64,000 nt of DNA from Promethearchaeia archaeon (GCA_029856155.1 JAHQWL010000055.1:64001-128000), one strand, 5' to 3'. Shown: positions 21,508 through 49,285, counted from the stretch's first letter. Notes: generated by a model not told the origin, from the sequence alone. Translations and numbers: made by a program.

Positions 21508-23256
21508 ATGAAAATGAAGCGAGAGTTACGGATTGAAAAACGTTATTTGAACTTTCCTGTTAAACACGTTAAATACGGAACAAAAAAAAGTTTAATACAC
21601 TTCATTATTGATGGTAAACTCGTACGTGAACTTGAAGTTTCACTGGCAATAGACGAACCTGATTTCTGGGTGTTTCTTGATGTTTCTGAATTTAAAGGTA
21701 AAAAAGCAACTTTACAAATCAAAAAGGAAAATGAAGCATTCAATAAAATTTATCAGGCTGACACATTTCCTGGAGAAGAAAACCTCTACAAAGAGCGCCT
21801 AAGACCTCAGTTCCATTTCTCAACACGTCGAGGATGGAACAACGACCCAAATGGTCTCGTCTATCATGACGGAGAATATCATTTGTTTTACCAGCATAAT
21901 CCTTACGGATGGGATTATGGTTCTGATGCCAATAAAGCTTGGGGTCATGCAATAAGCACTGACTTGGTACACTGGAAAGAAATAGGTGATGCAATTTATC
22001 CAGATAACCTAGGTGGAATATACTCTGGTTCAGCAGTTGTTGATAAGCTTAATACTACGGATTTTCAAAGTAGTGACGAAAAACCAATAATATGTATCTA
22101 TACTTCCGCTGGTGGTAAAACCCCGTGGTCAAAAGACAAGCCTTTTACCCAATCTATTGCATTTAGCAACGATAGGGGTAGAACTTTTACCAAATATAGT
22201 GGAAATCCTGTTCAAGATCTCATTGAACCAATGAATCGCGATCCAAAAGTTATTTGGCATGAACCATCAAATCAATGGGTAATTGTGTTATACTTAGAAG
22301 AAAGTGTTATGGGATTTTTCACATCCAAGGACCTTAAATCCTGGAAACTTCAAAGTAAATATGGAAGAGAAAATCTTCACGAATGCCCGGAATTATTCCA
22401 ATTAGCTATTGATGGAAATCAACAGAACAAAAAATGGATTTTATATGCTGGTAATGGTCGTTACGACATAGGACAATTCGATGGGAAGAAATTTATTCCC
22501 GAAACTAAAGAGATTGAGTTTTGCTATGGTAATTGTTTCTATGCATCACAAACTTTTAACAATGTTCCTGAAGAAGATGGTAGACGTATTCAAATGGCAT
22601 GGGGATTAAGTCCTATGCCAGATATGCCATTTAATCAACAGATGCTCTTTCCCGTTGAACTCACGCTAAGAACTACAGAAGATGGACTGAGAATGTTTGC
22701 TCAACCTATAGATGAAATTAAGAATATTTACGGCAAGAACTGGATATATCAAGAAAAAATTATCGAGGAAGGTCACCATTCAATTATGGAAGAAAATGTT
22801 GATTATGGCTTATACGATATTTCAGTCGAGTTTGAATTTGGGAGTGCCGAAAGATTTGGACTTTTAATTAAAAATATACAAATTACCTACGATATCAATG
22901 AGCAAAAGCTCTATTGTCAAGAACGTTATGCGCCATTAAAACCCATGGATGGTAGAATTAAACTCAGAATCCTTGTTGATCGCACAACATTGGAGATTTT
23001 CGCCAATGATGGCCAAATTTATATGCCGGTCCGTACATCTATTAAACTCTCAGATTTTTCCGAGGACTTTTCAAAATGGGGAACAGATTTTAACATTTCA
23101 GAATTTGTTGAACTATATCCACACAAAATCAATTATATAGTGTCCTATTTTAAACCTATCATTATAGAAAAAAACAATATTTTAGCTTTTAGCGAAGGTG
23201 GAGAAACTAAGCTAGCCAAAATGGAAATTTATGAGCTAAACTCAATTTGGTATTAA
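21508..23256 (+). CDS. GH32 levanase/beta-fructofuranosidase
   Basis: WNNDPNG, RDPKV and ECPE catalytic triad motifs, FYASQTF; N-terminal accessory domain. Confidence 0.93.
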   Translation: MKMKRELRIEKRYLNFPVKHVKYGTKKSLIHFIIDGKLVRELEVSLAIDEPDFWVFLDVSEFKGKKATLQIKKENEAFNKIYQADTFPGEENLYKERLRPQFHFSTRRGWNNDPNGLVYHDGEYHLFYQHNPYGWDYGSDANKAWGHAISTDLVHWKEIGDAIYPDNLGGIYSGSAVVDKLNTTDFQSSDEKPIICIYTSAGGKTPWSKDKPFTQSIAFSNDRGRTFTKYSGNPVQDLIEPMNRDPKVIWHEPSNQWVIVLYLEESVMGFFTSKDLKSWKLQSKYGRENLHECPELFQLAIDGNQQNKKWILYAGNGRYDIGQFDGKKFIPETKEIEFCYGNCFYASQTFNNVPEEDGRRIQMAWGLSPMPDMPFNQQMLFPVELTLRTTEDGLRMFAQPIDEIKNIYGKNWIYQEKIIEEGHHSIMEENVDYGLYDISVEFEFGSAERFGLLIKNIQITYDINEQKLYCQERYAPLKPMDGRIKLRILVDRTTLEIFANDGQIYMPVRTSIKLSDFSEDFSKWGTDFNISEFVELYPHKINYIVSYFKPIIIEKNNILAFSEGGETKLAKMEIYELNSIWY

Positions 23257-23291: not shown

Positions 23292-24986
23292 TTAATCCAT
23301 TCCTTCTCTGTCTTTTACTCCATATGGTGGATTAACACACCAGATATAATGGCCTTCATCGATTTTTATTTGATGGGGTGACTCAAATTCGCATTCTGGT
23401 GTTCGATTATCTGATACACACCGAGGATTAAAAGTACATCCTGGTGGTGGATCAATTGGGCTCGGAACTTCGCCATCTATAACATATTTTATATCTTGAT
23501 CAAAAGGATCTATTTCAGAGTGACTCTTTAGGAGTGCTTGAGTATAGGGATGGGCTGGATTTAAAAAGATTTGATCAGTTTCCCCAATCTCAACAACCTT
23601 ACCTAGATACATTACAGCAACTCTATCCGCAATATGATTCACAACGGCTAAATTATGTGTTATAAACAAGAAACCATATCCATATTCCTCCTGTAAGTCT
23701 ATAAGGAGGTTTAAGATTTGTGCTTGTACAGACACATCAAGAGCTGATGTGGGCTCATCAAGGACAACTAATTCTGGATTACAAGCAAGTGCTCTTGCTA
23801 TAATAATTCTTTGCTTTTGCCCCCCTGAAAACTCGTGAGGATAACGATCCATGTGTTCTCGTTTTAATGAAACCTGTTTCAATAGCCGCAAAACATGTCT
23901 TCTGATTTTCATTTTATCGGTAATAGCAAGCAAATTCTTAAGCGGTTCTGCTATAATATCAGTAACTTTTAAACGTGGATTTAAAGAAGCATCAGGATCC
24001 TGGAAAACCATTTGAATTTTTTGTCTGAAATAACTTGAAAATTCGTTCGGGATAGGTTCGTCATGAAATAATATTTCTCCATCTTCTATATCTAGTAATC
24101 CTAAAATTGTGTTTGCGATAGTTGTTTTCCCACATCCACTTTCTCCAACTAACCCTAATGTTTCACCTGTCTTGATCTCAAATGATATACTATCAACCGC
24201 TTTTACTTCACCAATTTTCCTTTTAAGTACCCCTTTAAGTAGAGGATAATATACTTTAAGGTTTGTAACTTTTAATAAAGGCTTACCCTTTTCTAAAACT
24301 TTTAGATCTCTGATCTCCTGAATTGGTATGGTTTTATAAGCGATTAATTTGGCTATAGCTATAGTTATAATAGAAATAATAATACTTATTAAGGAATCTA
24401 CAATAAAATAATCAAAGAACATTCTTTGTTGAATGATAAACATTAACATTAGACAAAGAGGGCCTGGTATTACACCGACAATAACGACAACTCTTCTTAA
24501 CTTCACCAATTGAATTTTATCTCCCCAACTTGCTATAAATCCTGATACACCAAAAATAACTAGAAGGAACAGAACAAAAGTAAATTTTGAACCATCCAAT
24601 TTATCATCACCTGTAATTAGAAAAATATCTATAATATCAAAAAGAGAAGATATATAAATGGTAGCAATGAATAAAATAATTTGAGCGAAGGCTACAATTT
24701 CTAAAGATCTTAACCACTTCTTTTTTTGAATTATTATTAAGATACCTAATCCAATAATAGTATTGATAAAAATCATGAGAAGGTCAGTGAACAGGTTTTT
24801 ACCGATCAATGAATAAATGGTTAACCCCACAACCATGCCTATAACAAACCAGGTTATATTTATAATCAACGCTGATAAAAAGGATTTATCCCATCTTCTA
24901 AATTTGATATGCCTATTTATATAAAACGTACCCACTAATATTTGTAATAGTTGAGTAGTAAACAATAATGTTATATTAACAGCCAT
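23292..24986 (-). CDS. oppF: OppF/DppF-type peptide ABC ATPase fused to an N-terminal multi-pass membrane domain
   Basis: GESGCGKT, FSGGQKQR, LDEPTSALD, HPYT, C-terminal Cys cluster; ~218-aa hydrophobic N-terminus. Confidence 0.88.
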   Translation of the reverse strand: MAVNITLLFTTQLLQILVGTFYINRHIKFRRWDKSFLSALIINITWFVIGMVVGLTIYSLIGKNLFTDLLMIFINTIIGLGILIIIQKKKWLRSLEIVAFAQIILFIATIYISSLFDIIDIFLITGDDKLDGSKFTFVLFLLVIFGVSGFIASWGDKIQLVKLRRVVVIVGVIPGPLCLMLMFIIQQRMFFDYFIVDSLISIIISIITIAIAKLIAYKTIPIQEIRDLKVLEKGKPLLKVTNLKVYYPLLKGVLKRKIGEVKAVDSISFEIKTGETLGLVGESGCGKTTIANTILGLLDIEDGEILFHDEPIPNEFSSYFRQKIQMVFQDPDASLNPRLKVTDIIAEPLKNLLAITDKMKIRRHVLRLLKQVSLKREHMDRYPHEFSGGQKQRIIIARALACNPELVVLDEPTSALDVSVQAQILNLLIDLQEEYGYGFLFITHNLAVVNHIADRVAVMYLGKVVEIGETDQIFLNPAHPYTQALLKSHSEIDPFDQDIKYVIDGEVPSPIDPPPGCTFNPRCVSDNRTPECEFESPHQIKIDEGHYIWCVNPPYGVKDREGMD

Positions 24987-25036
24987 TTTGACTTATCCTT
25001 CCATTTTTATATTATTTAAAATAAGTTTTATTGACT

Positions 25037-26920
25037 TTATTCCTCATGTTTTTTTATAGAAATTTCTGCTAATTCTTTAAAATCATCATCATAAAGATGA
25101 CAGGCTACAAAATAATCTGGTTCAAGCTCTATACTTTTTGGTATTTTCGAATCGCAAGGTTCGAAGCAGTACTTGCAACGTGGATGAAATCTGCATCCAG
25201 AAGGTGGATAAATCAGGTTTGGTACCGTTCCTTTTATAACTTCAAGATGACGTCTCTTTTTTCCTACAACGGGAACAGAGGCTATGAGACTTCTTGTGTA
25301 GGGATGATAGGGTTTTATGAATAGTTTCTGAATACTCCCATTTTCGACTATAAAACCTGAATACATCACAGCAACCCTATCACACATTTTGGAAATTATT
25401 CCTAGATCATGTGTGATAAACAACATTGAAGTATTAAATTTACTCTTAAGTTCTTTCATTAACTTTAGAATTTGATTTTGAATGGTTACGTCCAGTGCTG
25501 TTGTAGGTTCATCCGCGATTAAAAGTTTTGGGCTGCAAGCAAGACCCATAGCGATCTGAACCCTTTGTCGCATTCCTCCACTCAATTCATGTGGGTATAA
25601 ATTAAAAATCAAATTTGGGAATGGGATATTTAAATCCTGTAAAAGTCGCTCACTCCACTCTCGCGCAACAGTAAAAATACTTTTATCTTGTTTAGATGCT
25701 TCTATCAGCAATTCATTTTCCATATGCAAGAGAAAGACTTCAGTGATTTGAGCCCCAATTCTAAAAACGGGATTAAGAGAATTAAGGGGATCCTGAAAAA
25801 TCATGGTAATATCTTTCCCACGATATTCCAATACTTCAGATATCGATTTTTGTATCAAATCTTCTCCTTCAAAGATGACTTTACCTTTTTCTATTTTTCC
25901 TGGAGGGCGTACTAATTGTAGAATAGATAATGCTGTAACGGATTTACCACAACCAGTTTCTCCTACAAGACCAAGAGTTTCTCCCTCATTAATTTTAAAA
26001 GAAACACCTTCAACAGCTTTTACAATTCCCTCCTCTGTGTAGAAATAAGTTGTAAGATCTTGAACTTCTAAAATAACATTATTCCCAACACCCCTTATTT
26101 CATCACTTTGCTTTTTCTCATGTAGTTCAATGACTTTCTGAAGTTTTACTTCACTCCTTTCAAGAGCTTGTGGTTTAAATATCTTCTTTAATGTAATAAA
26201 GTAAACAGTGACATATAGTGCATTAACGACTATAATTAAAATACGAATATCTTGCTCGTATAGAATGATACCAAATAGTCTCTGTAAATATAGTTCAACA
26301 ATAATGAGCTGAATAGACCAAATTCCAAATGAGATAAGTCCACCAGTATATATGGCCTGCTTAAGCACGTTATCCGGAATCCGTGTCTCAATTGGCCGAG
26401 CTTTATTAACTGTAATTGTTATGATCATAGCAAAACCGATTACAAAAATAGCCCACAGAAAACCAAGATTGAATACATCAGGAATTTCCATAGGAATTTG
26501 GAGGAGAGGTATTGATAAAAAGATGGCTCCAACGATCCACGCTAGTATTATAAATTTAATATATAATCTCCTAAATTGTTCACTGATAATATTTTCCTCA
26601 TCATGCAATTTGTATTTCGCAAATCTCTTCAAAAAAATGGCGTGTAAGGGTAGAAATATTGTTGTCATTATAGCAAATAAAAATGCATCTGTAGTCAAGT
26701 ATCTGAATAAATAATACCCCTCAAAAATATAAAAATGTCCGAGAGATTCTAAAAGCAGACGAATACTTAATATTATCCCAAAAATAATTAGGGTGCTTAC
26801 ACCCGAACTATATCTATGAACCCTTTTAGAAATCCGAACTTCATCTCGGAGATTATTATTTAGAATGACAGCACTCAAATATAAAACCGAAGCTGCTACT
26901 AAAGCTTCAATTAATGACAT
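25037..26920 (-). CDS. oppD: OppD/DppD-type peptide ABC ATPase fused to an N-terminal multi-pass membrane domain
   Basis: GETGCGKS, LSGGMRQR, ADEPTTALD, HPYT, GCRFHPRC; ~248-aa hydrophobic N-terminus. Confidence 0.88.
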   Translation of the reverse strand: MSLIEALVAASVLYLSAVILNNNLRDEVRISKRVHRYSSGVSTLIIFGIILSIRLLLESLGHFYIFEGYYLFRYLTTDAFLFAIMTTIFLPLHAIFLKRFAKYKLHDEENIISEQFRRLYIKFIILAWIVGAIFLSIPLLQIPMEIPDVFNLGFLWAIFVIGFAMIITITVNKARPIETRIPDNVLKQAIYTGGLISFGIWSIQLIIVELYLQRLFGIILYEQDIRILIIVVNALYVTVYFITLKKIFKPQALERSEVKLQKVIELHEKKQSDEIRGVGNNVILEVQDLTTYFYTEEGIVKAVEGVSFKINEGETLGLVGETGCGKSVTALSILQLVRPPGKIEKGKVIFEGEDLIQKSISEVLEYRGKDITMIFQDPLNSLNPVFRIGAQITEVFLLHMENELLIEASKQDKSIFTVAREWSERLLQDLNIPFPNLIFNLYPHELSGGMRQRVQIAMGLACSPKLLIADEPTTALDVTIQNQILKLMKELKSKFNTSMLFITHDLGIISKMCDRVAVMYSGFIVENGSIQKLFIKPYHPYTRSLIASVPVVGKKRRHLEVIKGTVPNLIYPPSGCRFHPRCKYCFEPCDSKIPKSIELEPDYFVACHLYDDDFKELAEISIKKHEE

Positions 26921-26976
26921 TCCAAAATTTAATTCAATACCAACTTGAAATACTATTCCTATGATTATAGTTTACC

Positions 26977-27984
26977 TCATTTTTGTATGGTTAATCGTGG
27001 ATCTAAAGCGTCCCTTACTCCATCCCCCATTAACATAAACCCAACAGCAGTTATTCCGATAAAAATACCCGGCCATATTGCTGCCGCTATGGCAGTCATT
27101 GGGCGTCCTAAAGTCCAATTTATATCAATTCCCCAAGTTGCAATGTCAGGGTCTCCAAAACCTAGAAAAGCAAGCCCCGCTAAACCTAAAACTGTGCCCG
27201 CAGCTCCACCGAAGAAAGTTATTATCATAGGTGATATGGAGTTTGGTACAATATGTTTAAACATGACTTTAAATTTAAGAGCACCACCTGTTTTTGCTGC
27301 CTTTACATAATCAAATTGTTTTACTTGTAAAACCAATGATCGCATAAACCTAATATTATATGGAATGCCAAGTACCCCATAAATTACTAGAGTAGTTAAT
27401 AAATCTTGACCAATTATAGGAGCGAGAATGATTATTAAAATTAACATTGGAAATGAATACCATAAATCAGCAAAACGCATCATAAGATAATCAACAATAC
27501 CACCAAAATAGGCTGAAATTGTTCCTAAAATTAGACCACCCCCCATCGATATAATTACTGGTATAAACGCCATTCCTATTGAAGTTCGAGCACCCCATAT
27601 TATTCGTGCATATACATCATACCCATACAATGTTGTCCCTAGTGGATGTTCCGGGCTAGGATCATCGAAAGGAACGCCGTCTGGGGGAATGTATGGGGGT
27701 ACTACCTCTTGTAGCGGAATATCGGTTAAAAATGGCCCATAAACTGCTAAAATTACAATATATAAAACCATCAAGAACCCAATAATTGTTAAAGGGGTAA
27801 GAAAACGACGGAATACCCGCCTTTTTGATTTTATTTTTTCAATTTCATTTTCGTAAGCGGAGAATTCTGGATCACGCCAAGCGGGAAGTAGATAAAATTT
27901 CAATAGGCGTACCCACTTCTTACCTCCACTTACAGAAAAATCTTTATAATCTCTTTCTTCTATTGTTATATCTTGTTCAGTCAT
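26977..27984 (-). CDS. oppC: OppC/DppC peptide ABC permease
   Basis: HPLGT..GYDVYARIIWGARTS, EAA-like loop DYVKAAKTGGA, GDGVRDALDPR. Confidence 0.92.
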   Translation of the reverse strand: MTEQDITIEERDYKDFSVSGGKKWVRLLKFYLLPAWRDPEFSAYENEIEKIKSKRRVFRRFLTPLTIIGFLMVLYIVILAVYGPFLTDIPLQEVVPPYIPPDGVPFDDPSPEHPLGTTLYGYDVYARIIWGARTSIGMAFIPVIISMGGGLILGTISAYFGGIVDYLMMRFADLWYSFPMLILIIILAPIIGQDLLTTLVIYGVLGIPYNIRFMRSLVLQVKQFDYVKAAKTGGALKFKVMFKHIVPNSISPMIITFFGGAAGTVLGLAGLAFLGFGDPDIATWGIDINWTLGRPMTAIAAAIWPGIFIGITAVGFMLMGDGVRDALDPRLTIQK

Positions 27985-28013
27985 ATTTCAAATCTTTTGT
28001 TTTAATTATATCT

Positions 28014-29120
28014 TTAATTATATGTTATCCTCGGATCAATAATGGTATACATTACATCAGCAACCAATAGTCCAATGAGTGTAATTATTACAGCAAATAC
28101 CATTAAGCCATTAATGACCAAGTAATCACCTGCTGTAATTGCATTGAGAAACCACCAACCAAATCCTTTGTAATCAAAAGTCATCTCAATGAAAAGTGAT
28201 CCTAAAATTGCTCCTGCAGTACCCCCAATGATAAGATTACTCGTGGGGATGAGGGCATTCCGGAGTGCATGTTTATTAATAACATCGTTTTCTTCAACTC
28301 CTTTTGCACGAGCAGTTCTGATATAATCGCTATCTAATACTTCTAACATGCTTGAGCGCGTTAGTCTAGATATCCCTGCTAAGGACAAAAAAACCATACA
28401 TATGGAGGGAAGAATTAAATGCAAAATTGTATCAAAAAGAAACTTTTGATCATTATAAATAATGGCATCGAGAATTCGGAAGCCTGTGGTAAATCCACCT
28501 GCAGCATTTGGTAAAAAAAGCCCCGGTGAATTCGTTAACTGAACAGGTATAGCAAGTTGACCATTAGTAAATTCGGTAATATAAACACCAAAACCAATTT
28601 GAAGCAAGATAGCAATCCAAAAAACTGGAAAACCCGCGCCAAGTATCGTAATGAAACGAATTATATTATCTTTCACTTTATCTTTGTGTCTTGCTGCTGT
28701 AGCTCCAAGTTTGACAGCGATAATTGGAGTCAAAAAAATAGGGACTATCATTAATTCAATAGTCTTAGGAAAGATTTCAGCAATAAATTCAAGGACAGGT
28801 TTTCCTTCATTAAGTGTGTAAGATTCACCCCATTCTCCTATGAAAAAGTTTCTTAAATAATTAAAGAGTTGAACGTACCAAGGATCATTATATCCCACTC
28901 TTTCCATTTCCGCTGCAAGTAGTTCTGGGTTATCAGCTCCAACTCTAAATAGTATAGGGCTTACTAGCATCATCCTCGCTAATAGCCATGTAATTATTAA
29001 AGAAAGTATTAACATCGGAAACACAATAATAATTCGCTTAATGATATATTTTATCATGTTAGTGTGTTTTTTTCCCTTAGATTTCTTGAATTTGATTTCC
29101 TTTTTAGAGTTCTTTTCCAT
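28014..29120 (-). CDS. oppB: OppB/DppB peptide ABC permease (true start may be the internal MIKYIIKR)
   Basis: YIIKRI, RSSMLEVLDSDYIRTARAKG, HALRNALIP, DVMYTIIDPRI. Confidence 0.92.
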   Translation of the reverse strand: MEKNSKKEIKFKKSKGKKHTNMIKYIIKRIIIVFPMLILSLIITWLLARMMLVSPILFRVGADNPELLAAEMERVGYNDPWYVQLFNYLRNFFIGEWGESYTLNEGKPVLEFIAEIFPKTIELMIVPIFLTPIIAVKLGATAARHKDKVKDNIIRFITILGAGFPVFWIAILLQIGFGVYITEFTNGQLAIPVQLTNSPGLFLPNAAGGFTTGFRILDAIIYNDQKFLFDTILHLILPSICMVFLSLAGISRLTRSSMLEVLDSDYIRTARAKGVEENDVINKHALRNALIPTSNLIIGGTAGAILGSLFIEMTFDYKGFGWWFLNAITAGDYLVINGLMVFAVIITLIGLLVADVMYTIIDPRITYN

Positions 29121-29158
29121 TTTTATTCTTCACTTCTTTTATTATAATCCTTTTTTAC

Positions 29159-29653
29159 TCAAATTTTTCTTCTCTTTTTTATAATTTGTTTAAATTTCAT
29201 CCCACTTAAAGCCCCAGTAAACGTACACCCATACAAGATTAAAATATTTAAATAACCCTCTCCATGAGCAAATTGTAAGATGAACGGCTCTGCAGAGAAT
29301 CCAAACATTATCCAATAAAACAAAAAACCTTCAGCTATTAATAATGGTACCATCCACAATGAGGCTTTTATCCCATAATGTGGAATTTCTTCCTTATAGG
29401 TTAATAAAAAACATATGAAAAATAACAATAAAATGGGCAAGTAGAAAGTTTGTGGATATACTTTATAGGTCCAAAACAATATTGTAGGATCCATTTCAGT
29501 ATAAGGGATCGATACCGATCTACTACTAATCAAGAGTATATTCGCGACAATTCCGAAATAACCCAATAAAACAACTATATATGCAAAAATAATTGACCCT
29601 TGTCTACCCCAGTCAATTTGGAAATGTCCCTTTATTTCTGTATCATTTGTCAA
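29159..29653 (-). CDS. Uncharacterised membrane protein (~4 TM), first gene of the opp operon
   Basis: Four hydrophobic segments and a basic C-terminus; co-oriented 38 nt upstream of oppB; TTG start. Confidence 0.7.
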   Translation of the reverse strand: MTNDTEIKGHFQIDWGRQGSIIFAYIVVLLGYFGIVANILLISSRSVSIPYTEMDPTILFWTYKVYPQTFYLPILLLFFICFLLTYKEEIPHYGIKASLWMVPLLIAEGFLFYWIMFGFSAEPFILQFAHGEGYLNILILYGCTFTGALSGMKFKQIIKKRRKI

Positions 29654-29798
29654 AAGATATTCCTCTTTTTTATTGCTATTGTTATTAATTGTTCTTTGTG
29701 TTTTCCGATATATTCCGAAATTAAATATCTTACAATTAATCTACGTTATTTCTAAGAAATATTGAAATATTTAAATATCTTAATTACGTAACCTTATT

Positions 29799-29819
29799 TA
29801 AATTTACGATGTAAATTTA
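29799..29819. promoter_or_regulatory. Perfect 9-bp inverted repeat TAAATTTAC-GAT-GTAAATTTA, candidate operator
   Basis: In the divergent region between the opp operon and oppA, 27 nt before the oppA ATG. Confidence 0.45.
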
Positions 29820-29846
29820 TCTAAAAAAATGGAGAATAAATAAAAA

Positions 29847-32129
29847 ATGCAAAAATTCTCAACTAAATTAATTTTTATGCTTTTAATTAGCTCGCTTATT
29901 TTACCTTTCTTCCCTGTAAACACTAAAGCTGCCTCCGTTACAATACCTACATTAAAAATAGGATTGAAAAGCGGTGGAGTGGGAAGCTGGGACGGAATTA
30001 TAGCAACATCAGGATTCCATGCTTCTTATGGTCAAAATGCTCTTGAAGGGTTCGTGCAGATGCATCCTGGGTGGTCAGGTGATCCCGAAGATCTTCTCCC
30101 TGTGCTCGCAACGGAATTGGAGATTCATGAATGGCCAGAGGAACCTAATTCTTATGGCTGGATCAATAAAGGTGGTGTTAGGGCAATAGACTTAACTTTG
30201 CGAGAGGGTGTTACCTTCCATGATGGTTCCGCTTGGAACGCAACGGTGGCGAAATGGAATATTGATCGTAATATGGTGATGACTGGAAATATAACGGGTT
30301 CAATAACAATTTATGATATTGGAGTTACTAAGGCGAGAACTGCTTATTGGGTAAATGCCGAGGATTGGGTAGATTATGAAACTGCTACGTGGAATATATC
30401 CCAATTTATTGGAAAACCGGGTACATACGAGGGATTTGGATCTTCTACAGATGATGATATGATTGGGCGATATAGCAGAATTAAAAATGTGACCATACTC
30501 GAAAATCAAGAATTTGGAGGAAAAATTCGAATTTACTATAATGATTGGGGTGGTGCAGGCTCGCAGTTGCTATATGGTCTTGACTTTATGATGATTTCAA
30601 TGGACGCGTATAAAGACTATTTCGATCGACCAATTTATGGTTTGGGACAAGACCCTAACTTTCCACAACCATCGGGTCTTACAGGAGACCCGGACGATTA
30701 TCCTACTACCGGATTTCCTGGGCACTTGATTGGAACGGGACCTTATATATTTATCCAGCAAGATGAATTGATATTTCAAGGAGGTCGTATGATAAGAAAT
30801 CCAAATTGGTGGAATGCTACTGCTGCTGCTGCTGATGGTTGGCATCAAGTTGAAGAACTTGCTTTCGTTTACTTCTATTCTGACGATCTTACCGGAAGAA
30901 CTATAGGAATGGTTACTGAGACCATTGATATGGCTTATGATGCCCTATGGGCTGGAAATCTTATCTATGATGAAATGGAAGCTGATCCCGACATTAGATA
31001 TATGGATTTGGGTTATGAAGAAACTCGTACTTTTATAACATTGAATAGCATTAATGAAACATATTGGAAATATTGGGCAGATAATCCATCAAGAACTCCC
31101 TCAGAAATTAAGTCGAGGACTGAATTGCATGACATTGATTCGAGTGGAAGAGTCCATACTGACGGAATTGATAGGGCTCTTAGGAAAGCGTTAAGTTATG
31201 CATTTGATTATGATACTTTTATTAACGTCGTCAAACAAGGACGTGCAATACGATCTGCAGGTTTTCTTGGACATCAAAGTCCATATTACAATCCAAATAT
31301 ATCTATTCCTTACCGAAATCTTACAATCGCACGAAAAACGCTAATTAATGATCCTTTCTGGGGCCCAAAAGTGGCGGCTAGAAAGTTAGATATCAATAAC
31401 GCAACTGCTGATTGGATTTGGGTAGCGAACAATGATCCTATCTTTGAATTTAAGCTCATGTGGGAGGAGTCTACTGTACCCCAGGCGGACTTATTCTCGA
31501 CGAACATTAAAGAAATTGGGATTAAGTTGGACACTCCAGATGGGAAACGTGATAACGACTTAAAGTTACACCCAAATATCTTACAAGTAATGATTTTCCG
31601 TATTGAGGAATTCCCAGCGTTCACGTATCATGGAGTCCCTACTAACTGGCCTGATGACAGCAAGAACTCTGTACCAGTCCTTGAATATTATTATAAGAGT
31701 CCTGGACTTCCGTATGTCAACGGTTCGGGGCTAGCTTGGCCTGGTGTAGGTTATCTTGGGGGACAATTCTTTAACATAGGATTTCATTATAATGCAACCG
31801 TTGATAAATGGATAGAGAAACTTTGGTTTTCAGACAGCACTAGAACGCAAGCGCTAATGAATAATATGACCAGACACGTTCAAACCTATCACTACCCGGA
31901 GATCTTTATTTCTAATAACAAGTTCGGAATTGCAATGGATAAAGATTGGAAATTTGCTAACTTTCGGGATTATATCCATGCATTCGTAAAATATCTTCCT
32001 GCTAGTGGTGGTGATGGTGGTGTCCAAATCCCAGGGTTCGAAACTGCTCCTCTTTTAGCTATTGCTATTGTAACTATTACGGGAATCGGTTATTCGTTGA
32101 ATAGAAAGAGAAAACGAGCTGAAATTTAA
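29847..32129 (+). CDS. oppA: Family-5 (OppA/DppA) solute-binding protein with C-terminal IPGF anchor
   Basis: Signal peptide, LREGVTFHDGSAWNA, IGTGPY, LRKALSYAFDY, tail IPGFET-TM-RKRKR. Confidence 0.88.
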   Translation: MQKFSTKLIFMLLISSLILPFFPVNTKAASVTIPTLKIGLKSGGVGSWDGIIATSGFHASYGQNALEGFVQMHPGWSGDPEDLLPVLATELEIHEWPEEPNSYGWINKGGVRAIDLTLREGVTFHDGSAWNATVAKWNIDRNMVMTGNITGSITIYDIGVTKARTAYWVNAEDWVDYETATWNISQFIGKPGTYEGFGSSTDDDMIGRYSRIKNVTILENQEFGGKIRIYYNDWGGAGSQLLYGLDFMMISMDAYKDYFDRPIYGLGQDPNFPQPSGLTGDPDDYPTTGFPGHLIGTGPYIFIQQDELIFQGGRMIRNPNWWNATAAAADGWHQVEELAFVYFYSDDLTGRTIGMVTETIDMAYDALWAGNLIYDEMEADPDIRYMDLGYEETRTFITLNSINETYWKYWADNPSRTPSEIKSRTELHDIDSSGRVHTDGIDRALRKALSYAFDYDTFINVVKQGRAIRSAGFLGHQSPYYNPNISIPYRNLTIARKTLINDPFWGPKVAARKLDINNATADWIWVANNDPIFEFKLMWEESTVPQADLFSTNIKEIGIKLDTPDGKRDNDLKLHPNILQVMIFRIEEFPAFTYHGVPTNWPDDSKNSVPVLEYYYKSPGLPYVNGSGLAWPGVGYLGGQFFNIGFHYNATVDKWIEKLWFSDSTRTQALMNNMTRHVQTYHYPEIFISNNKFGIAMDKDWKFANFRDYIHAFVKYLPASGGDGGVQIPGFETAPLLAIAIVTITGIGYSLNRKRKRAEI

Positions 32130-32382: not shown

Positions 32383-32838
32383 ATGAACATGAACGAAAAA
32401 ACATATATTATTGCAGATAAGAAATATCATATAATTAAAATAGGAAGATCTAAGAATCCAGACAAACGCTTGAAAACAATTCAAATAAACGGTAGTACAG
32501 AATTGGAAATCATTTGTGTTTTTGAGAAAGATATTGAAAGAGAGATAAAGGAGTTGTTGAAAAAATATAAAGTTCGAGGAGAATGGTACTTTCCTAACCC
32601 AAAGACACTGCTAGAAATCCAAGAAAATTATCTTCCTAATAATCAAGAAATAGCTTCATTAATTGATAATTTATTTGGAAAAATAGAACTGAGTGATCAA
32701 CCTATTTGCTTTTGCTGGGTAGACGATAAAGAAAGTAGATGTCAATTCAAACAACATAAAGGTTCGATTATAACTTGTGAGTCTTACGAAATTTGGAGAT
32801 CTTGTGTAAGAAAAGAAGAAATAAATTTCGGTGATTAG
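32383..32838 (+). CDS. GIY-YIG superfamily nuclease (T5orf172/Mug113-like) with Cys-rich C-terminal extension
   Basis: TYII...IKIGRSKNPDKRLKTIQ...IEREI...VRGEWY. Confidence 0.75.
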   Translation: MNMNEKTYIIADKKYHIIKIGRSKNPDKRLKTIQINGSTELEIICVFEKDIEREIKELLKKYKVRGEWYFPNPKTLLEIQENYLPNNQEIASLIDNLFGKIELSDQPICFCWVDDKESRCQFKQHKGSIITCESYEIWRSCVRKEEINFGD

Positions 32839-32891: not shown

Positions 32892-34160
32892 TTATTTCTT
32901 TCTCTTCATTCGTATTATTATAGCAGCGGTCAATGCAGTGAAAATGCCCATAACAACAAGAGGTTCATAACCAGGGATTGGTGGTGGCGGTGATGGTTCT
33001 GGTGCTTCTCCAACAGTCATGATAACTTCATCATAAACAACATGTCCGCGTTGATCTGTAAAGCCGACTCGAAAGAGGTGATCTCCTGCAGCTAAACCAT
33101 CTGGAACGGCATAACTAACTTCTACTCCGCTTGTCCAAGCAGTTGGAGTTAGTACTCCGGTTCCATTCCGGGTAATCCCATATTGATAAGGATTTGCATC
33201 TGTTGCTGTCCATTCTATTGTTACTCCTGTGTAATCATGGTCGACTGCAAAATCAGCTGGAGTTGCAGTTAATACGGGATCAGCTGAATCCTCTAGCGTT
33301 ACATCGTAGAGTATAGTACTACCATACTCGAATGAGTGGTATGTCAATACACCATCCGACCCGTAGGTAGTATTTATAGTTATGGCAAGTGAATTATTTC
33401 CAAATCCCATGGCAGGTGAAAACATTGAAAACCCGTTAGGTAATTCGGAAAATGAGAGAGAATAACTATAATTAGCTGATATTGCATAATATAATTCTAA
33501 CATTGTATCAGATAATGATACGAATTCCGTCCAGTTCACATTTGTTGGTGCAAAGAAGATTGAGTTTGCGTTAAAAGTACCCCACATACCCAAATACCAT
33601 ATGTTAGTGGCCCACCACAAATTAGTACATAAAAGACCATACGACATATCTTCCGCAAATCCTGCTGTCTCGTTATTGATAGCAAAGGTCCTAGGCGTTT
33701 CCCAATATCTGTAATAAAGATAATCTGGAAAATTCATGACAGTATAACTGTCATTTATACTCATCTGAACAAGTGAGTTACCAGGATAATCCCAAGCTTC
33801 AAATGGATCTGACATATTCACTCCTTCATCAAAATTCGTATCGTAACCATCTTTGTCTGAGAAAATTGATGCAATGTCCATACGTATAGTATACTGTGGT
33901 GCAGTAGGAGTCTTATCGGTCGATCCAAGTATCGTAGTAAAATTATCTATCCAGCTATGACCAAAGGGTTCCCCCCAGTGAGGGGTCATATTATCAGTGA
34001 ACCATTGGTCCCATTGTAAATATATATTTACATCGAATTCGTAAACATCCCCCTCTGACACACCAACATAGGGAGTAGGTTGAGCTATCGAAGGTCTCAT
34101 GAATGGAAGAAGTAATAACAATCCTACGAGTGAAATCGTTACTATTTTAGTTTTTTTCAT
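32892..34160 (-). CDS. Exported surface protein with Ig-like C-terminal domain and IPGY-TM-basic anchor
   Basis: Signal peptide, many N-x-S/T sequons, beta-rich terminal domain, PEPSPPPP linker, IPGYEP-TM-RMKRKK. Confidence 0.8.
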   Translation of the reverse strand: MKKTKIVTISLVGLLLLLPFMRPSIAQPTPYVGVSEGDVYEFDVNIYLQWDQWFTDNMTPHWGEPFGHSWIDNFTTILGSTDKTPTAPQYTIRMDIASIFSDKDGYDTNFDEGVNMSDPFEAWDYPGNSLVQMSINDSYTVMNFPDYLYYRYWETPRTFAINNETAGFAEDMSYGLLCTNLWWATNIWYLGMWGTFNANSIFFAPTNVNWTEFVSLSDTMLELYYAISANYSYSLSFSELPNGFSMFSPAMGFGNNSLAITINTTYGSDGVLTYHSFEYGSTILYDVTLEDSADPVLTATPADFAVDHDYTGVTIEWTATDANPYQYGITRNGTGVLTPTAWTSGVEVSYAVPDGLAAGDHLFRVGFTDQRGHVVYDEVIMTVGEAPEPSPPPPIPGYEPLVVMGIFTALTAAIIIRMKRKK

Positions 34161-37483: not shown

Positions 37484-38401
37484 TTGTTGGAATTTGGAGC
37501 GCAAATATTAAATTATTTTAACACATGGGAAGAAATCCTTCCGACGATTAAGCATATAGATGCAGGACCGTGGAGTAGCCTGATGTTCTCAGATCATTTT
37601 CTACCACCCTATCCTGGAGCAAATCTGGAAGCTGAATCTGCTTTAGAGAGCTGGACCATGCTCACGGCGACCGCTGCTGTTACAGAACGAGTGAGATTAG
37701 CGGTGCTTGTAACAGGCAATTTATTTCGTAATCCGGCATTACTTGCTAAAATGGCTTCCACTATAGACCAAATCTCTAAAGGTCGGCTTATCCTAGCTAT
37801 TGGTGCTGGTTGGTATGAACGAGAGCATGAGGCATTCGGTTGGAACTTTCCAGGAGTTAAGGAGAGGTGTGATCGTCTTGAAGAGGCAGTAGAGCTGATA
37901 AAAATGCTGTTTACTGCTGATGGGCCAATAGATTACAATGGTCAGTATTATAAGCTTAATCAAGCATATTTTTCGCCTCCCTGTATACAGAAGCCACATA
38001 TTCCAATCATGGTTGGAGGAAATGGAGAAAAAAGGACATTACGTACACTCGCTCGTTTCGGTGATATTGCTAATATTGATCTTAATAAACCTGGAACTCC
38101 AGAATTGTTTAGACATAAACTGGATGTGATTGAACGACATTGTGAAGAACTTGGTCGTGATCCATCTGAAATTAAAAAAACTATGGTGACTCCATTACGA
38201 ATTTTTGACGATGAAAAAGAAGCTGCCCAGTATCTTGAAAAACGTGGAAGAAAAACATGGTTATACGGTACAGTTCCATATATAATTGAACGAGTTCAGC
38301 AATATATCGATGCTGGTGCCGAGGAGATCATATTTAGTGGTCTATCCACCGTTGAATGGGCTGAGCAAGTAGAAGACAAGATTTTTCCAGCGTTTAGCTG
38401 A
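37484..38401 (+). CDS. LLM-class (probably F420-dependent) oxidoreductase, copy 1
   Basis: SDHF, RNPALLAKMASTIDQISKGRLILAIGAGW, IMVGGNGEKRTL. Start is probably the TTG at 37487, by comparison with the paralog. Confidence 0.9.
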   Translation: MLEFGAQILNYFNTWEEILPTIKHIDAGPWSSLMFSDHFLPPYPGANLEAESALESWTMLTATAAVTERVRLAVLVTGNLFRNPALLAKMASTIDQISKGRLILAIGAGWYEREHEAFGWNFPGVKERCDRLEEAVELIKMLFTADGPIDYNGQYYKLNQAYFSPPCIQKPHIPIMVGGNGEKRTLRTLARFGDIANIDLNKPGTPELFRHKLDVIERHCEELGRDPSEIKKTMVTPLRIFDDEKEAAQYLEKRGRKTWLYGTVPYIIERVQQYIDAGAEEIIFSGLSTVEWAEQVEDKIFPAFS

Positions 38402-38469
38402 GATTTTTTTATTTTTAAAAATAAGTTCCGTGTAGTATCTTCAAATGACCAGAAAACAAATATTGAGAA

Positions 38470-39375
38470 ATGAAAGGATTAATTTATGACATTCAAAGGT
38501 TTGCCATTCATGATGGTCCAGGAATTAGGACCTTAATTTACATGAAAGGATGCCCCCTTAGATGTTTATGGTGTTCTTCACCTCACACGCAAAAAAAGTC
38601 TCCAGAAATTCTCTATCTTGAGTCAAATTGTAAAGGATGCTTGAGCTGTGTTGAGGCGTGTCCAGAAAAAGCCATTAAACTTTCTGATAATGAGAAAATA
38701 ACGATAGATAGAAACATTTGTAATACCTGTGGTCAGTGTGTTGAAACATGCCCTAACGACGCTTTAAGACTTGTAGGAAAACAAATAACGGTAGAAGAAC
38801 TATTCCAAGATGTAATGAAGGACAATCCCTTTTACAGAAGGTCAAAAGGAGGGGTCACGGTAGGGGGCGGTGAACCTACTATGCAACATGAATTTGTCGC
38901 GAATTTTCTTAAGAAATGTAAGGAAACGTATATTCACGCAGCAATCGAAACCTGCGGATATGCAAAATGGGAAAGTTTGGAAAATATCCTCGATTATGTA
39001 GATCTCCTCTATTTTGACATTAAGCACATGGATTCAAACATCCACAAAAAAATTACGGGGATTTCAAACGAAATAATCTTAGAGAATGCAAGAAAAGCTT
39101 CTAAATTGAAACCACTTATAATCCGCATTCCTCTAATACCGGATATTAACGATTCTGAAGAAAATATTTTAAAAACGGCAGGGTTCGCTGCCGAATTAGG
39201 AGAAAATCTACTGTGGATTGAACTTCTACCTTACCACAAGTTTGGAATTGTTACTTATGAGCAACTTGGTCGAGAGTATGAACTCAAGGATGTTGAACCT
39301 CCGAGCGAAGAACACATGAAAAAATTAAAGGCGCTCGTTGAGTCCTGTGGTGTAAAGGCTCAAATAGGTGGATAA
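38470..39375 (+). CDS. Glycyl-radical enzyme activating protein (radical SAM with ferredoxin insert)
   Basis: IQRFAIHDGPGIRT, GCPLRCLWC (CxxxCxxC), two CxxCxxCxxxC, GGVTVGGGEP, LLPYH. Confidence 0.95.
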   Translation: MKGLIYDIQRFAIHDGPGIRTLIYMKGCPLRCLWCSSPHTQKKSPEILYLESNCKGCLSCVEACPEKAIKLSDNEKITIDRNICNTCGQCVETCPNDALRLVGKQITVEELFQDVMKDNPFYRRSKGGVTVGGGEPTMQHEFVANFLKKCKETYIHAAIETCGYAKWESLENILDYVDLLYFDIKHMDSNIHKKITGISNEIILENARKASKLKPLIIRIPLIPDINDSEENILKTAGFAAELGENLLWIELLPYHKFGIVTYEQLGREYELKDVEPPSEEHMKKLKALVESCGVKAQIGG

Positions 39376-39394
39376 TACCTCTTAAAAAATCCAT

Positions 39395-41482
39395 CTACAT
39401 TTTTTCGACTCGACATAAAAGAGCTTTTGTTGATACTGAAGCTGTTATTGAATCCTTTGGGCCATCGTCTGTAATTTGATTAATGTTTAACTTTTCCCAC
39501 CCATCTTCTCTTCCATACCAGAACCCGTGAGGTGTGTGAACAATTTTTGGATGTGTCTCCTCGAAGTACTTAACTTTAACCTCAACTTTACCTCTTGGTG
39601 AAACCAAATGAACCCACTCTCCGTCTTCAATTCCTAGACTTTTACATGTATCAGGATGTATTTCAAGTTCAGGATCCGGTGCGTTTTTCCTAAGAGATGG
39701 AATATTTCGAAATGAGGAATGATAATAGGACAAGATTCTCCTCCCTGTGGTTAATACAAGAGGGTATTTCTTCCATAGATCAGGGGTGCTAACAGGGCTT
39801 TCTGGTGGTTCCTTATACGCAGGAATAGGATTTAAACCCCATTCTTCAAAATACTTTGGACACAATCCAATTTTACCCGATGGTGTATTAAACCTACCCC
39901 TTTTTTCATACAATTTGTATTTCATGGGAAGAGAAAATTTGCCGACTTTTTTAAATTCCTCAAATGTCATCCCAATAGGTTCTAAGCGATAATTGAGAGA
40001 TTCTTCAACTGTCTGCCAATAGTCTTTGAGACCCATTTTTTTAGCGAGTTCAACTAAGATTTCTTTTTCGCAACGACACTCTGGAACGGGTTCTACAGCT
40101 TTCACTTGACAGAAAACATGGTTTTTCATGCTCAAATCTTCAATATCATCCCTTTCTGTCCAATGCGCTGCTGGAAGCACGACATCCGCCATTTGTGTGG
40201 TAGGTGTGTGGAAGTAATCCACGGAAAATAGAAATTCTAAAGCATTTAAAGCTTCCTTGACATGTTTAGAGTTAGCATATGCACACATGGGATTAGTAGC
40301 AAACAATCCAATGGTTTTAACAGGATACGGGTCTTCCTTAAGAATAGCATCCCATACTAATTCAGGAGTTACTGACATTCCTGTGAAGCGTATCCCTGGA
40401 AATTTATCACGACCTATTTTTTTCTTTGCTTGTTCAGCTGATAACGCGATTTCATATTGATAGTCGCCCCCATAACAACTCCGCGCTTTTGTTGGAGGTA
40501 CATGACTTACATTTCCTCCTTTAATGTCTAAATTTCCGGTAATCGCGGCTAAAATGGTGAGTGAGCGTGTGAGATCGAAAACATTAATTGATTGGCAGGC
40601 ACCACCAGGACCAGGACCCATCGCAGCAGGCTTAGTTGTAGCATAGGTGATCGCTGCCGCTTCTATCTCTTCAGATGGAATCCATGTTAATTCAGCAACA
40701 CGGTCCAAATTGAATTCTGAGGCACGTTCCTTTAACTGGTCAAAACCTTCGGTCCATTTTTCTACGAATTCTTTATCGTATAGTTCATTTTCAATGATTA
40801 CGTTTATGAAACAAAGAGCCAATGCTACATCAGTTCCAGGTCTAATGGCAAGCCAGTGATCTGCTTTGCGTGTATATGAATTACCTCTAGGATCAACAAC
40901 AATGAGTTTAGCTCCTGCTTTTAAACCTTTTCTAATGAAATAATTATAAATTCCGGGGTATGATTTTTCAGGATTATGTGCCCACAACAATATGCATTTA
41001 CTATTCCCATAGTCAGGATCGAGTATTCCAAATCCAGCGGTGAGAGAGCTTGCGAGGACAATAGGAGCACCGCTCATGTGACCAGCTGACATGAAATTAG
41101 GTGTCCCAAATAGACTCATAAAGCGGTAAATCCAAGGTGGCATGCCTCTTGTCGTGCCTTGACCAAATACGACGGATTCAGCCCCCCATTTTTCTCGCGT
41201 TTCAAGGAGTTTTTTAGCTATAGTGTCAAGAGCTTTTTCCCAAGATACTTCCTCAAACTTTCCTTCTCCTCGTTTCCCAACTCTTATCAATGGTTTGGTC
41301 AGTCGTTCAGGATGATATATTATCTCCATACATGCCCTCCCTTTTGGGCACATATATCCATGGCTTATGGGATGGTCCTTGTCTCCTTTTACTCCCACTA
41401 TTTTTCCATCTTTTACTTCGAGAAGCACACCACAACGGGAGTGACAGTCAAAACAGATCGTTCGAACAGTTTTAGTACTCAT
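39395..41482 (-). CDS. Mo/W-bisPGD oxidoreductase of the acetylene-hydratase-like clade, single subunit
   Basis: CFDCHSRC...C FS0, RFMSLFGTPN, IRPGTD, DPYPVK, TPTTQMADVVLPAAHWTER, TPSGKI, PHGFW. Confidence 0.8.
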   Translation of the reverse strand: MSTKTVRTICFDCHSRCGVLLEVKDGKIVGVKGDKDHPISHGYMCPKGRACMEIIYHPERLTKPLIRVGKRGEGKFEEVSWEKALDTIAKKLLETREKWGAESVVFGQGTTRGMPPWIYRFMSLFGTPNFMSAGHMSGAPIVLASSLTAGFGILDPDYGNSKCILLWAHNPEKSYPGIYNYFIRKGLKAGAKLIVVDPRGNSYTRKADHWLAIRPGTDVALALCFINVIIENELYDKEFVEKWTEGFDQLKERASEFNLDRVAELTWIPSEEIEAAAITYATTKPAAMGPGPGGACQSINVFDLTRSLTILAAITGNLDIKGGNVSHVPPTKARSCYGGDYQYEIALSAEQAKKKIGRDKFPGIRFTGMSVTPELVWDAILKEDPYPVKTIGLFATNPMCAYANSKHVKEALNALEFLFSVDYFHTPTTQMADVVLPAAHWTERDDIEDLSMKNHVFCQVKAVEPVPECRCEKEILVELAKKMGLKDYWQTVEESLNYRLEPIGMTFEEFKKVGKFSLPMKYKLYEKRGRFNTPSGKIGLCPKYFEEWGLNPIPAYKEPPESPVSTPDLWKKYPLVLTTGRRILSYYHSSFRNIPSLRKNAPDPELEIHPDTCKSLGIEDGEWVHLVSPRGKVEVKVKYFEETHPKIVHTPHGFWYGREDGWEKLNINQITDDGPKDSITASVSTKALLCRVEKM

Positions 41483-41731
41483 ACCCTACTCAATTTTAGC
41501 AATTTTAACAATTTTAGTATTTATGAATATTTCTTTATTTATAATCTTTCAAATCAGAGATTGAAAATGTTAATATCTAATCTTTTCGCTTTCCCATAAA
41601 GATATTATAATAAAAAATATTAAAATCGGAATAAAATATACAGCATATATTTAAAAATTTCTAATCCCTAATATAAACAGTAGTTAATTTTTTCATCCTT
41701 TTAAAATAATTTAGAAGAGAAGTTTCGAAAA

Positions 41732-44206: not shown

Positions 44207-44244
44207 TAATTGTTAATTTTAAAAATTTATTTCTTTTTTTAACT

Positions 44245-45156: not shown

Positions 45157-45270
45157 TGATAATCCTCTTCTATTACATAAAAGTTAATTCTTAAATTAGA
45201 TTTTTTAAATAATAATAGTTTTTTTAAAATTTAATAGTTGTTTTATTGCTTTCAAGATTTATAATATTCA

Positions 45271-46950: not shown

Positions 46951-46968
46951 TCGTTAAGTAATTAATTG

Positions 46969-48288: not shown

Positions 48289-48432
48289 ATCAATTTATAT
48301 TCGAAATTAGACCTTCTTTACTTAAAAGAAATTCATACTATGCTAATATGCCAAAGCTGTTAAATATAATAAAACTTAGTTACATATAATTTTCTATAAA
48401 AATCACTGATTATTATATATAAAAACTTAAAA

Positions 48433-49203: not shown

Positions 49204-49285
49204 ATATACAATATAAATTTATATTTAATGTGATTTTTTCTATAGTATCTTAATAAGAAAAAAGAAGTATTTAGGGAAAAACCCG

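Follow-up and report, generated by a model that had tools for sequence, protein, structure and literature searches.

The ATPases of textbook type I ATP-binding cassette (ABC) importers are soluble and can be shared or exchanged between systems. What role could be played by membrane domains fused to both ATPases of such an importer? The question is raised by a locus at positions 23,292–32,129 of a 64,000-nucleotide (nt) stretch of DNA from a Promethearchaeia archaeon (GCA_029856155.1 JAHQWL010000055.1:64001-128000; hereafter the window), which is part of contig C55 of a metagenome-assembled genome (MAG) of 4.1 Mb and 97% completeness. Taxon labels of public homologues place it among Asgard archaea of the Lokiarchaeia type. 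Judged from its sequence, the locus encodes an Opp/Dpp (PepT, TC 3.A.1.5) type I ABC importer whose core is canonical. Each of its ATPases, OppD and OppF, starts with a domain of seven transmembrane (TM) helices, and the operon is headed by the gene of a separate 4-TM protein. The two extra domains and the 4-TM subunit define three new membrane protein families, and the TM-fused design of OppD and OppF is conserved in Asgard archaea and apparently undescribed. We favour, at roughly even confidence, an accessory role in which the fused domains tether and dock the ATPases beside the permease.

An intact import core with three additional membrane modules

Five open reading frames (ORFs) on the minus strand, separated by gaps of 29–56 nt, form a single operon at 23292–29653 in the order 4-TM gene, OppB, OppC, 7TM::OppD and 7TM::OppF (Table 1). 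A reading of the window made from the sequence alone (the sequence-only reading) had described two ATPase ORFs that each open with about seven TM helices in frame with an intact nucleotide-binding domain (NBD), N-terminal domains resembling neither each other nor OppB and OppC, complete OppB and OppC, an orphan 4-TM gene and a divergent binding protein with an IPGF anchor. The ORF coordinates and the motifs, profiles and models described below agree with this layout, except that the 4-TM gene, which does head the operon, is not confined to the fusion design.

The permeases are complete. OppB matches BPD_transp_1 (PF00528, 1.2e-37) and BPD_transp_1_N in Pfam and Opp4B/DppB-type models in NCBIfam; OppC matches BPD_transp_1 (2.2e-26) and Opp4C/DppC-type models. 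The NBD of OppD matches ABC_tran (PF00005, 2.8e-26), oligo_HPY (PF08352, 8.6e-19) and, below the equivalog cut-off, the NCBIfam OppD subfamily (1.1e-98), and that of OppF matches ABC_tran (1.6e-34), oligo_HPY (1.1e-16) and, again below the equivalog cut-off, DppF/OppF (2e-108). All their motifs are intact: Walker A (GETGCGKS in OppD, GESGCGKT in OppF), signature (LSGGMRQR, FSGGQKQR), Walker B (LLIADEPT, VVLDEPT), H-loop and HPY. OppD has Cys576, Cys582, Cys589 and Cys607, whose spacing of 6/7/18 is identical to that of the [4Fe-4S] ligands C284/290/297/315 of Escherichia coli DppD; OppF has Cys517, Cys523, Cys532 and Cys550, spaced 6/9/18 where E. coli DppF has 6/7/17 (PMC12136057). An iron-sulphur site is thus predicted in each ATPase, on a cysteine pattern as in E. 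coli DppD and DppF. Because the ATPase motifs, the EAA-type coupling loops of OppB and OppC and the cysteine pattern are all kept, we regard the import core as intact. No other Opp-type ATPase pair was found in the source genome at E ≤ 1e-30, so that this is presumably the working importer.

The N-terminal domains of OppD and OppF (hereafter OppD-N and OppF-N) each contain seven hydrophobic helices by hydropathy, and AlphaFold2 models computed from family alignments give seven long helices for each, with predicted local distance difference test scores (pLDDT) of 73.7 for OppD-N and 73.1 for OppF-N. The lysine plus arginine counts per loop, averaged over 29 homologues of OppD-N and 25 of OppF-N, alternate strongly: they are 2.7/1.9/4.0/6.3 in the cytoplasmic and 0.2/0.6/0.7/2.1 in the external loops of OppD-N, and 3.6/2.6/3.8/2.0 and 0/0.1/0.6/0.2, respectively, in those of OppF-N. 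Both domains are therefore predicted to be N-out/C-in, which places the ATPases in the cytoplasm. Their cytoplasmic loops measure 8–14 amino acids (aa).

Both domains show column-wise conservation of the kind expected of coding sequence. The best-conserved parts of OppD-N (alignment A3) are TM5, the cytoplasmic loop R180-x-P182, the GIWSIQL..E209 segment of TM6 and an external QD(I)R ahead of TM7, and five polar residues inside predicted helices are invariant (S202, Q204, E209, T168 and N172). In OppF-N (alignment A4), the conserved core comprises TM5–TM7, including the loop SWGDKIQLVKLRR on the cytoplasmic side and, in TM6, an IPG motif; Q102 and Q186 are the invariant polar residues in predicted helices, and the linker into the NBD is conserved as well (Y217-T219-I220...E232).

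The third module, the 4-TM protein, has four hydrophobic segments, matches no Pfam or NCBIfam family, and is N-in/C-in by its charge counts. Its alignment (A5) has 34 invariant columns. It carries the loop YKEDIPHYGIKAS, and its conserved motifs DWGRQG and YKE(D/E)IPHYGIKAS are predicted to be cytoplasmic. Homologues are ~13 aa longer at the N-terminus, and the frame of the window is open upstream (29654–29746, minus strand) with no ATG, GTG or TTG ahead of the TTG at 29653; it is uncertain whether this TTG is the true start or a rarer start codon is used.

None of the three modules could be linked to a known family. No Pfam or NCBIfam family matched residues 1–282 of OppD or 1–232 of OppF, and when the three modules were run against Pfam at E ≤ 10, they drew nothing beyond noise (MFS_1 at 0.053, Gaa1, AgrB and others, none of them near the cut-off), and no ABC_membrane. 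Profile comparisons with hhalign showed no similarity among OppD-N, OppF-N and the 4-TM protein, nor between any of them and OppB or OppC. With the models of the two N-domains, Foldseek returned from the PDB only generic seven-TM rows of G-protein-coupled receptors and rhodopsins (TM-score 0.15–0.33, E ≥ 0.18), and a wide VIA-align search peaked at Z 8.2 for OppD-N and at Z 11.2 for OppF-N (on partial four-helix bundles), both in a range common for helical bundles. For OppD-N, the ESM Atlas fold search stayed at TM ≤ 0.37 and the Atlas feature search gave nothing, while a PDB sequence profile search with alignments A3 and A5 produced nothing significant. Profile and fold searches, which had been proposed as a check of the N-domains, thus gave no known permease or fold; a fold relationship may have been missed, given that the models reach no more than medium confidence (pLDDT 73–74).

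Table 1. Coordinates of the importer genes, their domains and the divergent intergenic region in the window.
Feature	Position	Strand	Remarks
4-TM accessory membrane protein	29159..29653	-	164 aa from TTG start
OppB-type permease	28014..29120	-	368 aa; coupling (EAA-type) loop RTARAKG...
OppC-type permease	26977..27984	-	335 aa; coupling loop VKAAKTGG...
OppD-like whole ORF	25037..26920	-	627 aa; NBD from ~residue 283
OppD N-terminal 7-TM domain	26075..26920	-	residues 1-282, with helical linker of ~30 aa
OppD-type ATPase domain	25037..26074	-	residues 283-627
OppF-like whole ORF	23292..24986	-	564 aa; NBD from ~residue 233
OppF N-terminal 7-TM domain	24291..24986	-	residues 1-232
OppF-type ATPase domain	23292..24290	-	residues 233-564
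Divergent intergenic region, 4-TM gene / binding-protein gene	29654..29846	.	193 bp; presumably holds both promoters
Family-5 substrate-binding protein	29847..32129	+	760 aa; divergently transcribed

Conservation of the fusions and of the 4-TM subunit

Searches within full-length proteins identified 167 fused homologues with OppD-N and 55 with OppF-N. They come from many projects, and those labelled with a taxon are nearly all Asgard. The OppD-N profile had 59 matches among 1.84 billion cluster representatives. Ten long matches were scanned: nine have both ABC_tran and oligo_HPY, one has no Pfam match, and no free-standing OppD-N was identified among the ten; the short matches (66–300 aa), which fell outside that scan, are taken to be truncated gene calls. 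Among 300 other genomes of the phylum, 19 encode OppD-N, always in uninterrupted frames of 630–1069 aa. These carriers are 18 of the 68 genomes of the window's own family and one genome outside it. The latter provides the only TM-fused OppD outside the family in the phylum sample (locus L021, on the 4.8-kb contig G241:C79); both NBD trees place it in a tight group with a sequence of the window's own genus, so that mis-binning or a (recent) transfer is possible. All 29 loci in species-representative genomes are from uncultured archaeal MAGs, and the 26 that bear a taxon label are all Asgard. No relative of the N-domains was found outside the Asgard archaea or in the fold libraries searched.

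The organisation of the locus is conserved together with the fusions. In ~20 fetched loci, drawn from independent Asgard MAGs and analysed with tblastn, there is a binding protein (usually divergent) and the order 4-TM - OppB - OppC - TM::OppD - TM::OppF is kept; some genomes have up to four TM-fused loci. The binding-protein gene adjoins the operon in nearly all loci with enough flanking sequence: it is divergent in nine related loci and, in a few others, on the same strand or elsewhere. Its orthologues across related loci are 23–47% identical, and the N-domains 30–64%.

The extension of OppF varies in length. It was present in all 17 loci checked, with 7, ~4 or ~3 TM, and the ~3-TM form (7 of the 17) matches TM5–7 of the long form and keeps the WGDKIQL loop. 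Where BLAST revealed no N-domain, the frame upstream of OppF is open for ~105–113 aa, with a start codon (ATG in five of seven cases) and two to three hydrophobic peaks. One related OppF was publicly called at 366 aa with its start placed too late, since the upstream frame is open and has an ATG and ~3 TM. In a genome of the sister family (G213, a single contig of 4.36 Mb), OppF (453 aa) has a three-helix extension aligning to TM5–7 (hhalign 97.3%, E 2e-11), and in OppD (658 aa) only TM5–6 of the N-domain are recognisable (hhalign 92.6%, E 5e-7); E209 of OppD-N is replaced in the sister-family homologue. At the other extreme of length, paralogous OppD frames of 976–1069 aa (L015 7107–9890, L023 7691–10480, L024 7617–10658 and one on G273:C126) have a partial second copy of the N-domain (~TM4–6) between the first copy and the ATPase.

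Neither the OppD and OppF of the window nor the family consensus has a methionine near either junction, which makes a separately initiated soluble ATPase unlikely. In a quick maximum likelihood tree of the NBDs, rooted on the paralogy of OppD and OppF, the TM-fused OppD form one clade (SH-like approximate likelihood ratio test 98) and the TM-fused OppF another (94); a single origin of the fusions is therefore likely. The sequence-only reading had named two observations that would speak against a novel system, stop codons at the junctions in relatives and N-domains matching a permease already known to be fused to OppD or OppF. The survey of Asgard genomes shows uninterrupted frames with no such stop codons, and no such permease matched. 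Our literature searches found no published account of an OppD or OppF with membrane domains, and fusions in the Opp-type family go unmentioned in a survey of Asgard transporters. The proposal of an undescribed system is supported in so far as the architecture is real and conserved, and we found no earlier description of it.

The 4-TM family is wider than the fusions. It has 269 homologues, those with a source label being nearly all Asgard MAGs, and an Atlas feature search gave only unnamed clusters, mostly Asgard archaeal. It occurs in 56 of the 301 genomes of the phylum sample, in 52 of 68 in the window's own family and in three of seven in the sister family, and its gene is the first of the operon in nearly all related loci. 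The same family has a second operon type (L055–L058, in G071, G171, G207 and G147) that comprises a diverged 4-TM gene (~27–32% identity to that of the window), OppB, OppC, OppD and OppF. Here, OppD is soluble (407–434 aa), OppF (340–588 aa) is either soluble or has a TM-containing insert inside the NBD, and both ATPases fall in clades apart from the TM-fused ones in the quick NBD tree. In the OppF of L056, Walker A is separated from the Q-loop by an insert of ~230 aa, which includes TM segments and a charged stretch resembling a coiled coil and is unrelated to OppF-N and to the 4-TM family in hhalign comparisons. The membrane helices of this OppF are thus inside the NBD, whereas those of the window are N-terminal, but in both cases a normally soluble archaeal Opp-type ATPase has gained helices. 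Since the 4-TM family extends beyond the fusions and occurs with soluble OppD, the 4-TM protein does not serve the 7-TM domains exclusively; more probably, it acts on the core formed by OppB, OppC and the NBDs. A complex prediction for OppD-N (A3) with the 4-TM protein (A5) scored 0.00, which weighs neither for nor against binding.

Possible roles of the additional modules

The reading that we hold with about as much confidence as doubt is that the fused domains are accessory and non-translocating, and that they tether each ATPase beside the permease and dock through their cytoplasmic loops, by analogy with the TMD0 of other ABC proteins. In such an importer, the membrane-anchored binding protein would hand the substrate to the OppB/OppC heterodimer, whose coupling loops would engage the two catalytically competent ATPases. 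The 7-TM domain of OppD, the 7-, ~4- or ~3-TM domain of OppF and the free 4-TM subunit would stand outside the translocation pathway, as modules added in a lineage of Asgard archaea, chiefly in the window's own family. The ATPases would be cytoplasmic yet permanently tethered in the bilayer by their N-out/C-in domains. These would most likely sit beside OppB and OppC as an outer shell, and their conserved cytoplasmic loops and flanking helices would dock onto the ATPases or the core. If there is regulatory input, it would be of a general kind (membrane or energy state) and not substrate-specific.

Docking of this kind fits the conservation pattern, because the best-conserved elements are cytoplasmic loops and their flanking helices. 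The shrinkage of OppF-N from seven to ~3 TM with one cytoplasmic loop motif kept also fits docking or anchoring better than a seven-TM pocket for a ligand. The N-domains are kept while the binding proteins diverge, which argues against substrate-specific sensing. Several points weigh against the tethering reading. The invariant polar residues in the helices of OppD-N exceed what a passive anchor needs and could point to a second pathway or to the binding of an ion or ligand. The 4-TM subunit, given that it is also paired with soluble OppD, may act on OppB and OppC independently of the fused domains. The likeness to TMD0 is one of analogy: homology was not found, and no TMD0-bearing chain is among the Foldseek or VIA matches, although these were obtained with models of medium confidence, which makes a missed fold relationship possible. 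Finally, it is by inference that we place the modules within the complex and call their role accessory.

A less probable interpretation, raised by the sequence-only reading, is that the membrane domains are sensors or gates. They would respond to an external ligand, to the lipid state or to an ion or proton gradient and switch the ATPases, much like the C-terminal regulatory domains of MalK, MetN and OpuA but from within the membrane. The invariant polar and charged residues in the helices of OppD-N and OppF-N would suit such a function, as would the covalent join to the NBD, with its conserved linker in OppF, and the cytoplasmic location of the best-conserved loops. However, the domains resemble no known sensor family or fold, E209 is replaced in the sister-family homologue, and OppF-N is down to ~3 TM in 7 of 17 loci. 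They are also kept while the binding proteins diverge, so they would not be sensors of the substrate. Sensory or signal-controlled gating is thus unproven.

It is unlikely that the extra helices act as a hub, binding the helix that anchors the binding protein or neighbouring surface hydrolases and holding the receptor near the translocator in a cell without a periplasm. There is a precedent, since TMD0 is an interaction hub in TAP and SUR and that of TAP binds a helix of tapasin. The binding protein does have a C-terminal TM anchor, and its gene lies beside the operon in nearly all adequately flanked loci. Yet the tail formed by IPGF, a TM segment and basic residues is generic and common to unrelated surface proteins in the window, so that it can confer little specificity; conservation in the N-domains is highest on the cytoplasmic side and not at the outer leaflet; and a sortase-like removal of the tail, if it occurs, would leave no helix to bind.

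We also consider it improbable that the fused proteins are working parts rather than anchors and, alone or together with the 4-TM subunit, make up a further pathway or a mechanotransmission device, such that the movements of OppD and OppF drive a second membrane process besides import: ion movement (through S202, Q204 and E209), export or flipping, or surface-layer mechanics. This would be in line with the order of membrane domain then NBD, which is that of exporters and half-transporters, with the invariance of the intramembrane polar residues and with the partial second N-domain copy in some OppD paralogues (976–1069 aa). In structures of type I importers, however, each NBD has one coupling groove (e.g. 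PMC12136057), which is expected to be filled here by the EAA loops of OppB and OppC. The cytoplasmic loops of 8–14 aa are unlike the coupling helices of exporters, the two domains are unrelated and the ~3–7 TM of OppF are a poor basis for a pseudo-symmetric pathway, and no ABC_membrane, ABC2 or FtsX fold matched. The fold searches of the N-domains also listed no exporter TM domain, a result that would not decide the matter on its own. If true, this reading would make the system a bifunctional ABC machine of an undescribed kind, specific to Asgard archaea. The lack of any Pfam membrane family at E ≤ 10, the short loops and the OppD/F-class NBDs do not agree with an ABC exporter half-transporter (type IV/V) proper.

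We give practically no credence to an artefact (an assembly error, an overlooked frameshift or the false joining of an upstream membrane gene to those of the ATPases). The sole weak point in this respect is the 366-aa public gene call, and the frame upstream of it is open. Against an artefact stand the uninterrupted frames, which recur in 19 further genomes and on numerous metagenome contigs of different projects, the lack of methionines near the junctions and the column-wise conservation of the N-domains.

Neighbourhood, significance and comparison with known systems

The binding protein matches SBP_bac_5 (PF00496, 1.7e-19) over residues 281–563 of 760 only, and its NCBIfam matches are all far below cut-off; it is thus divergent. 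Its sequence includes a signal peptide and 12 N-x-S/T sequons and closes with a C-terminal anchor made of IPGF, a TM segment and RKRKR, the tail reading ...IPGFETAPLLAIAIVTITGIGYSLNRKRKRAEI. The PGF-CTERM model of NCBIfam does not match it at E ≤ 0.01, and the genome, at 97% completeness, yielded no Exosortase_EpsH (PF09721). I-P-G-F codons occur on the plus strand at 19871, 21339, 32028 and 63875, and at least three surface proteins have them in their C-terminal anchor; there are 6 matches where 1.25 are expected. The IPGF tail may act as a sorting signal specific to Asgard archaea and be processed by an as yet unknown enzyme. No link of the locus to DSAG12_03090, the abundant binding protein of P. 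syntrophicum, is shown: the sequon positions of the G213 binding protein do not match the published glycosites N157, N398, N474 and N483.

As to the substrate of the importer, no NCBIfam equivalog model was reached. Archaeal Opp-type systems carry sugars as well as peptides (see references in PMC11284389), and opines and metals are further substrates of the family. A peptide substrate is unproven, and the neighbouring genes point in several directions. Convergent with OppF is an intracellular-looking GH32 glycoside hydrolase (21508–23256, plus strand; Glyco_hydro_32N at 6.9e-62, the C domain and DUF4980), and a copy with 78% identity adjoins the closest related operon (L018 15310–17034). Because GH32 adjoins OppF here and the operon there, the substrate could be a fructo-oligosaccharide rather than a peptide. 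Two tandem proteins of the beta-lactamase fold (PF00144; 18680–19957 and 20103–21434, plus strand) have the same tail of IPGF, TM and basic residues as the binding protein. Homologues adjoin the related operons L016 and L018, with weaker matches at L054 and L017 (in the latter, ~3.5 kb past the binding-protein gene), and these proteins may act as hydrolases at the cell surface and supply the importer.

In eight loci (L002, L003, L004, L011–L014 and L022), a PFL-like glycyl-radical enzyme (GRE) is encoded directly downstream of OppF, followed by an activase homologue in at least three (L012, L014 and L022). These GREs are ~33% identical to the GRE of the window (41732–44206), which is part of a GRE island (37.4–49.2 kb) in the region 37484–50650, along with a Mo/W-enzyme and related genes. 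In L018, the closest locus, counterparts of this island abut OppF with 76–94% identity. The importer may supply a GRE pathway. An association between the length of the OppF extension (~3 or 7 TM) and the GRE neighbourhood was ruled out, as GRE-linked loci have both forms. Past the binding-protein gene, a MUG113/T5orf172 (GIY-YIG-like) gene (32383–32838, plus strand) and a 422-aa ORF without Pfam match (32892–34160, minus strand) are possibly the remnant of a mobile element.

As the only Opp-type importer found in its genome, the system is probably important for nutrition. Asgard archaea in culture break down amino acids and peptides (PMC7997004), and in P. syntrophicum no detected protein is more abundant than a family-5 binding protein (PMC11284389). 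The main interest of the locus is that both ATPases of an importer are built permanently into the membrane, where those of textbook systems are soluble. The gain of helices by Opp-type ATPases through different routes, N-terminal fusion here and insertion into the NBD in the second operon type, suggests a recurrent pressure in archaea towards membrane embedding. The three families are well suited to structural work, and understanding the design could reveal a new mode of assembly or regulation of ABC importers.

Two groups of known systems have domains comparable with those described here. The first is that of TMD0 in ABCC proteins (MRP1, SUR1) and in TAP1/TAP2, and of the N-terminal extension of HMT-1, all of which have an extra N-terminal helix bundle outside the translocation core (PMC2944878). 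The N-domains share with the TMD0 of ABCC an odd helix count (in the 7-TM form) and an external N-terminus, and that TMD0 serves anchoring, assembly or partner binding. The likeness is thus one of topology and position; similarity in sequence or fold was not found. Proteins with TMD0 have the exporter fold, with TMD0 followed by the core TM domain in one chain, whereas here the bundle leads straight into the NBD of a type I importer, whose core TM domains are separate proteins. The second group comprises the regulatory domains of MalK, MetN (C2), ModC and OpuA (CBS), which are extra domains borne covalently by the NBD of a type I importer, as here, and which modulate ATPase activity. They are C-terminal and cytosolic, with known folds and ligands, whereas those of the window are N-terminal, polytopic membrane domains that have no known fold.

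The importer itself is closest to E. coli DppBCDF/DppA and Mycobacterium tuberculosis OppABCD, with which it shares two BPD_transp_1 permeases with EAA-type loops, two ATPases with ABC_tran, oligo_HPY and a four-cysteine C-terminal motif, and a family-5 binding protein (PMC12136057). The ATPases of E. coli Dpp are soluble peripheral subunits of ~330 aa, and those of M. tuberculosis are two fused NBDs (PMC12136057). Unlike in these systems, each ATPase of the present importer has an N-terminal integral membrane domain, with seven TM each in the window, an additional 4-TM subunit leads the operon, and the binding protein reaches 760 aa and ends in an anchor helix.

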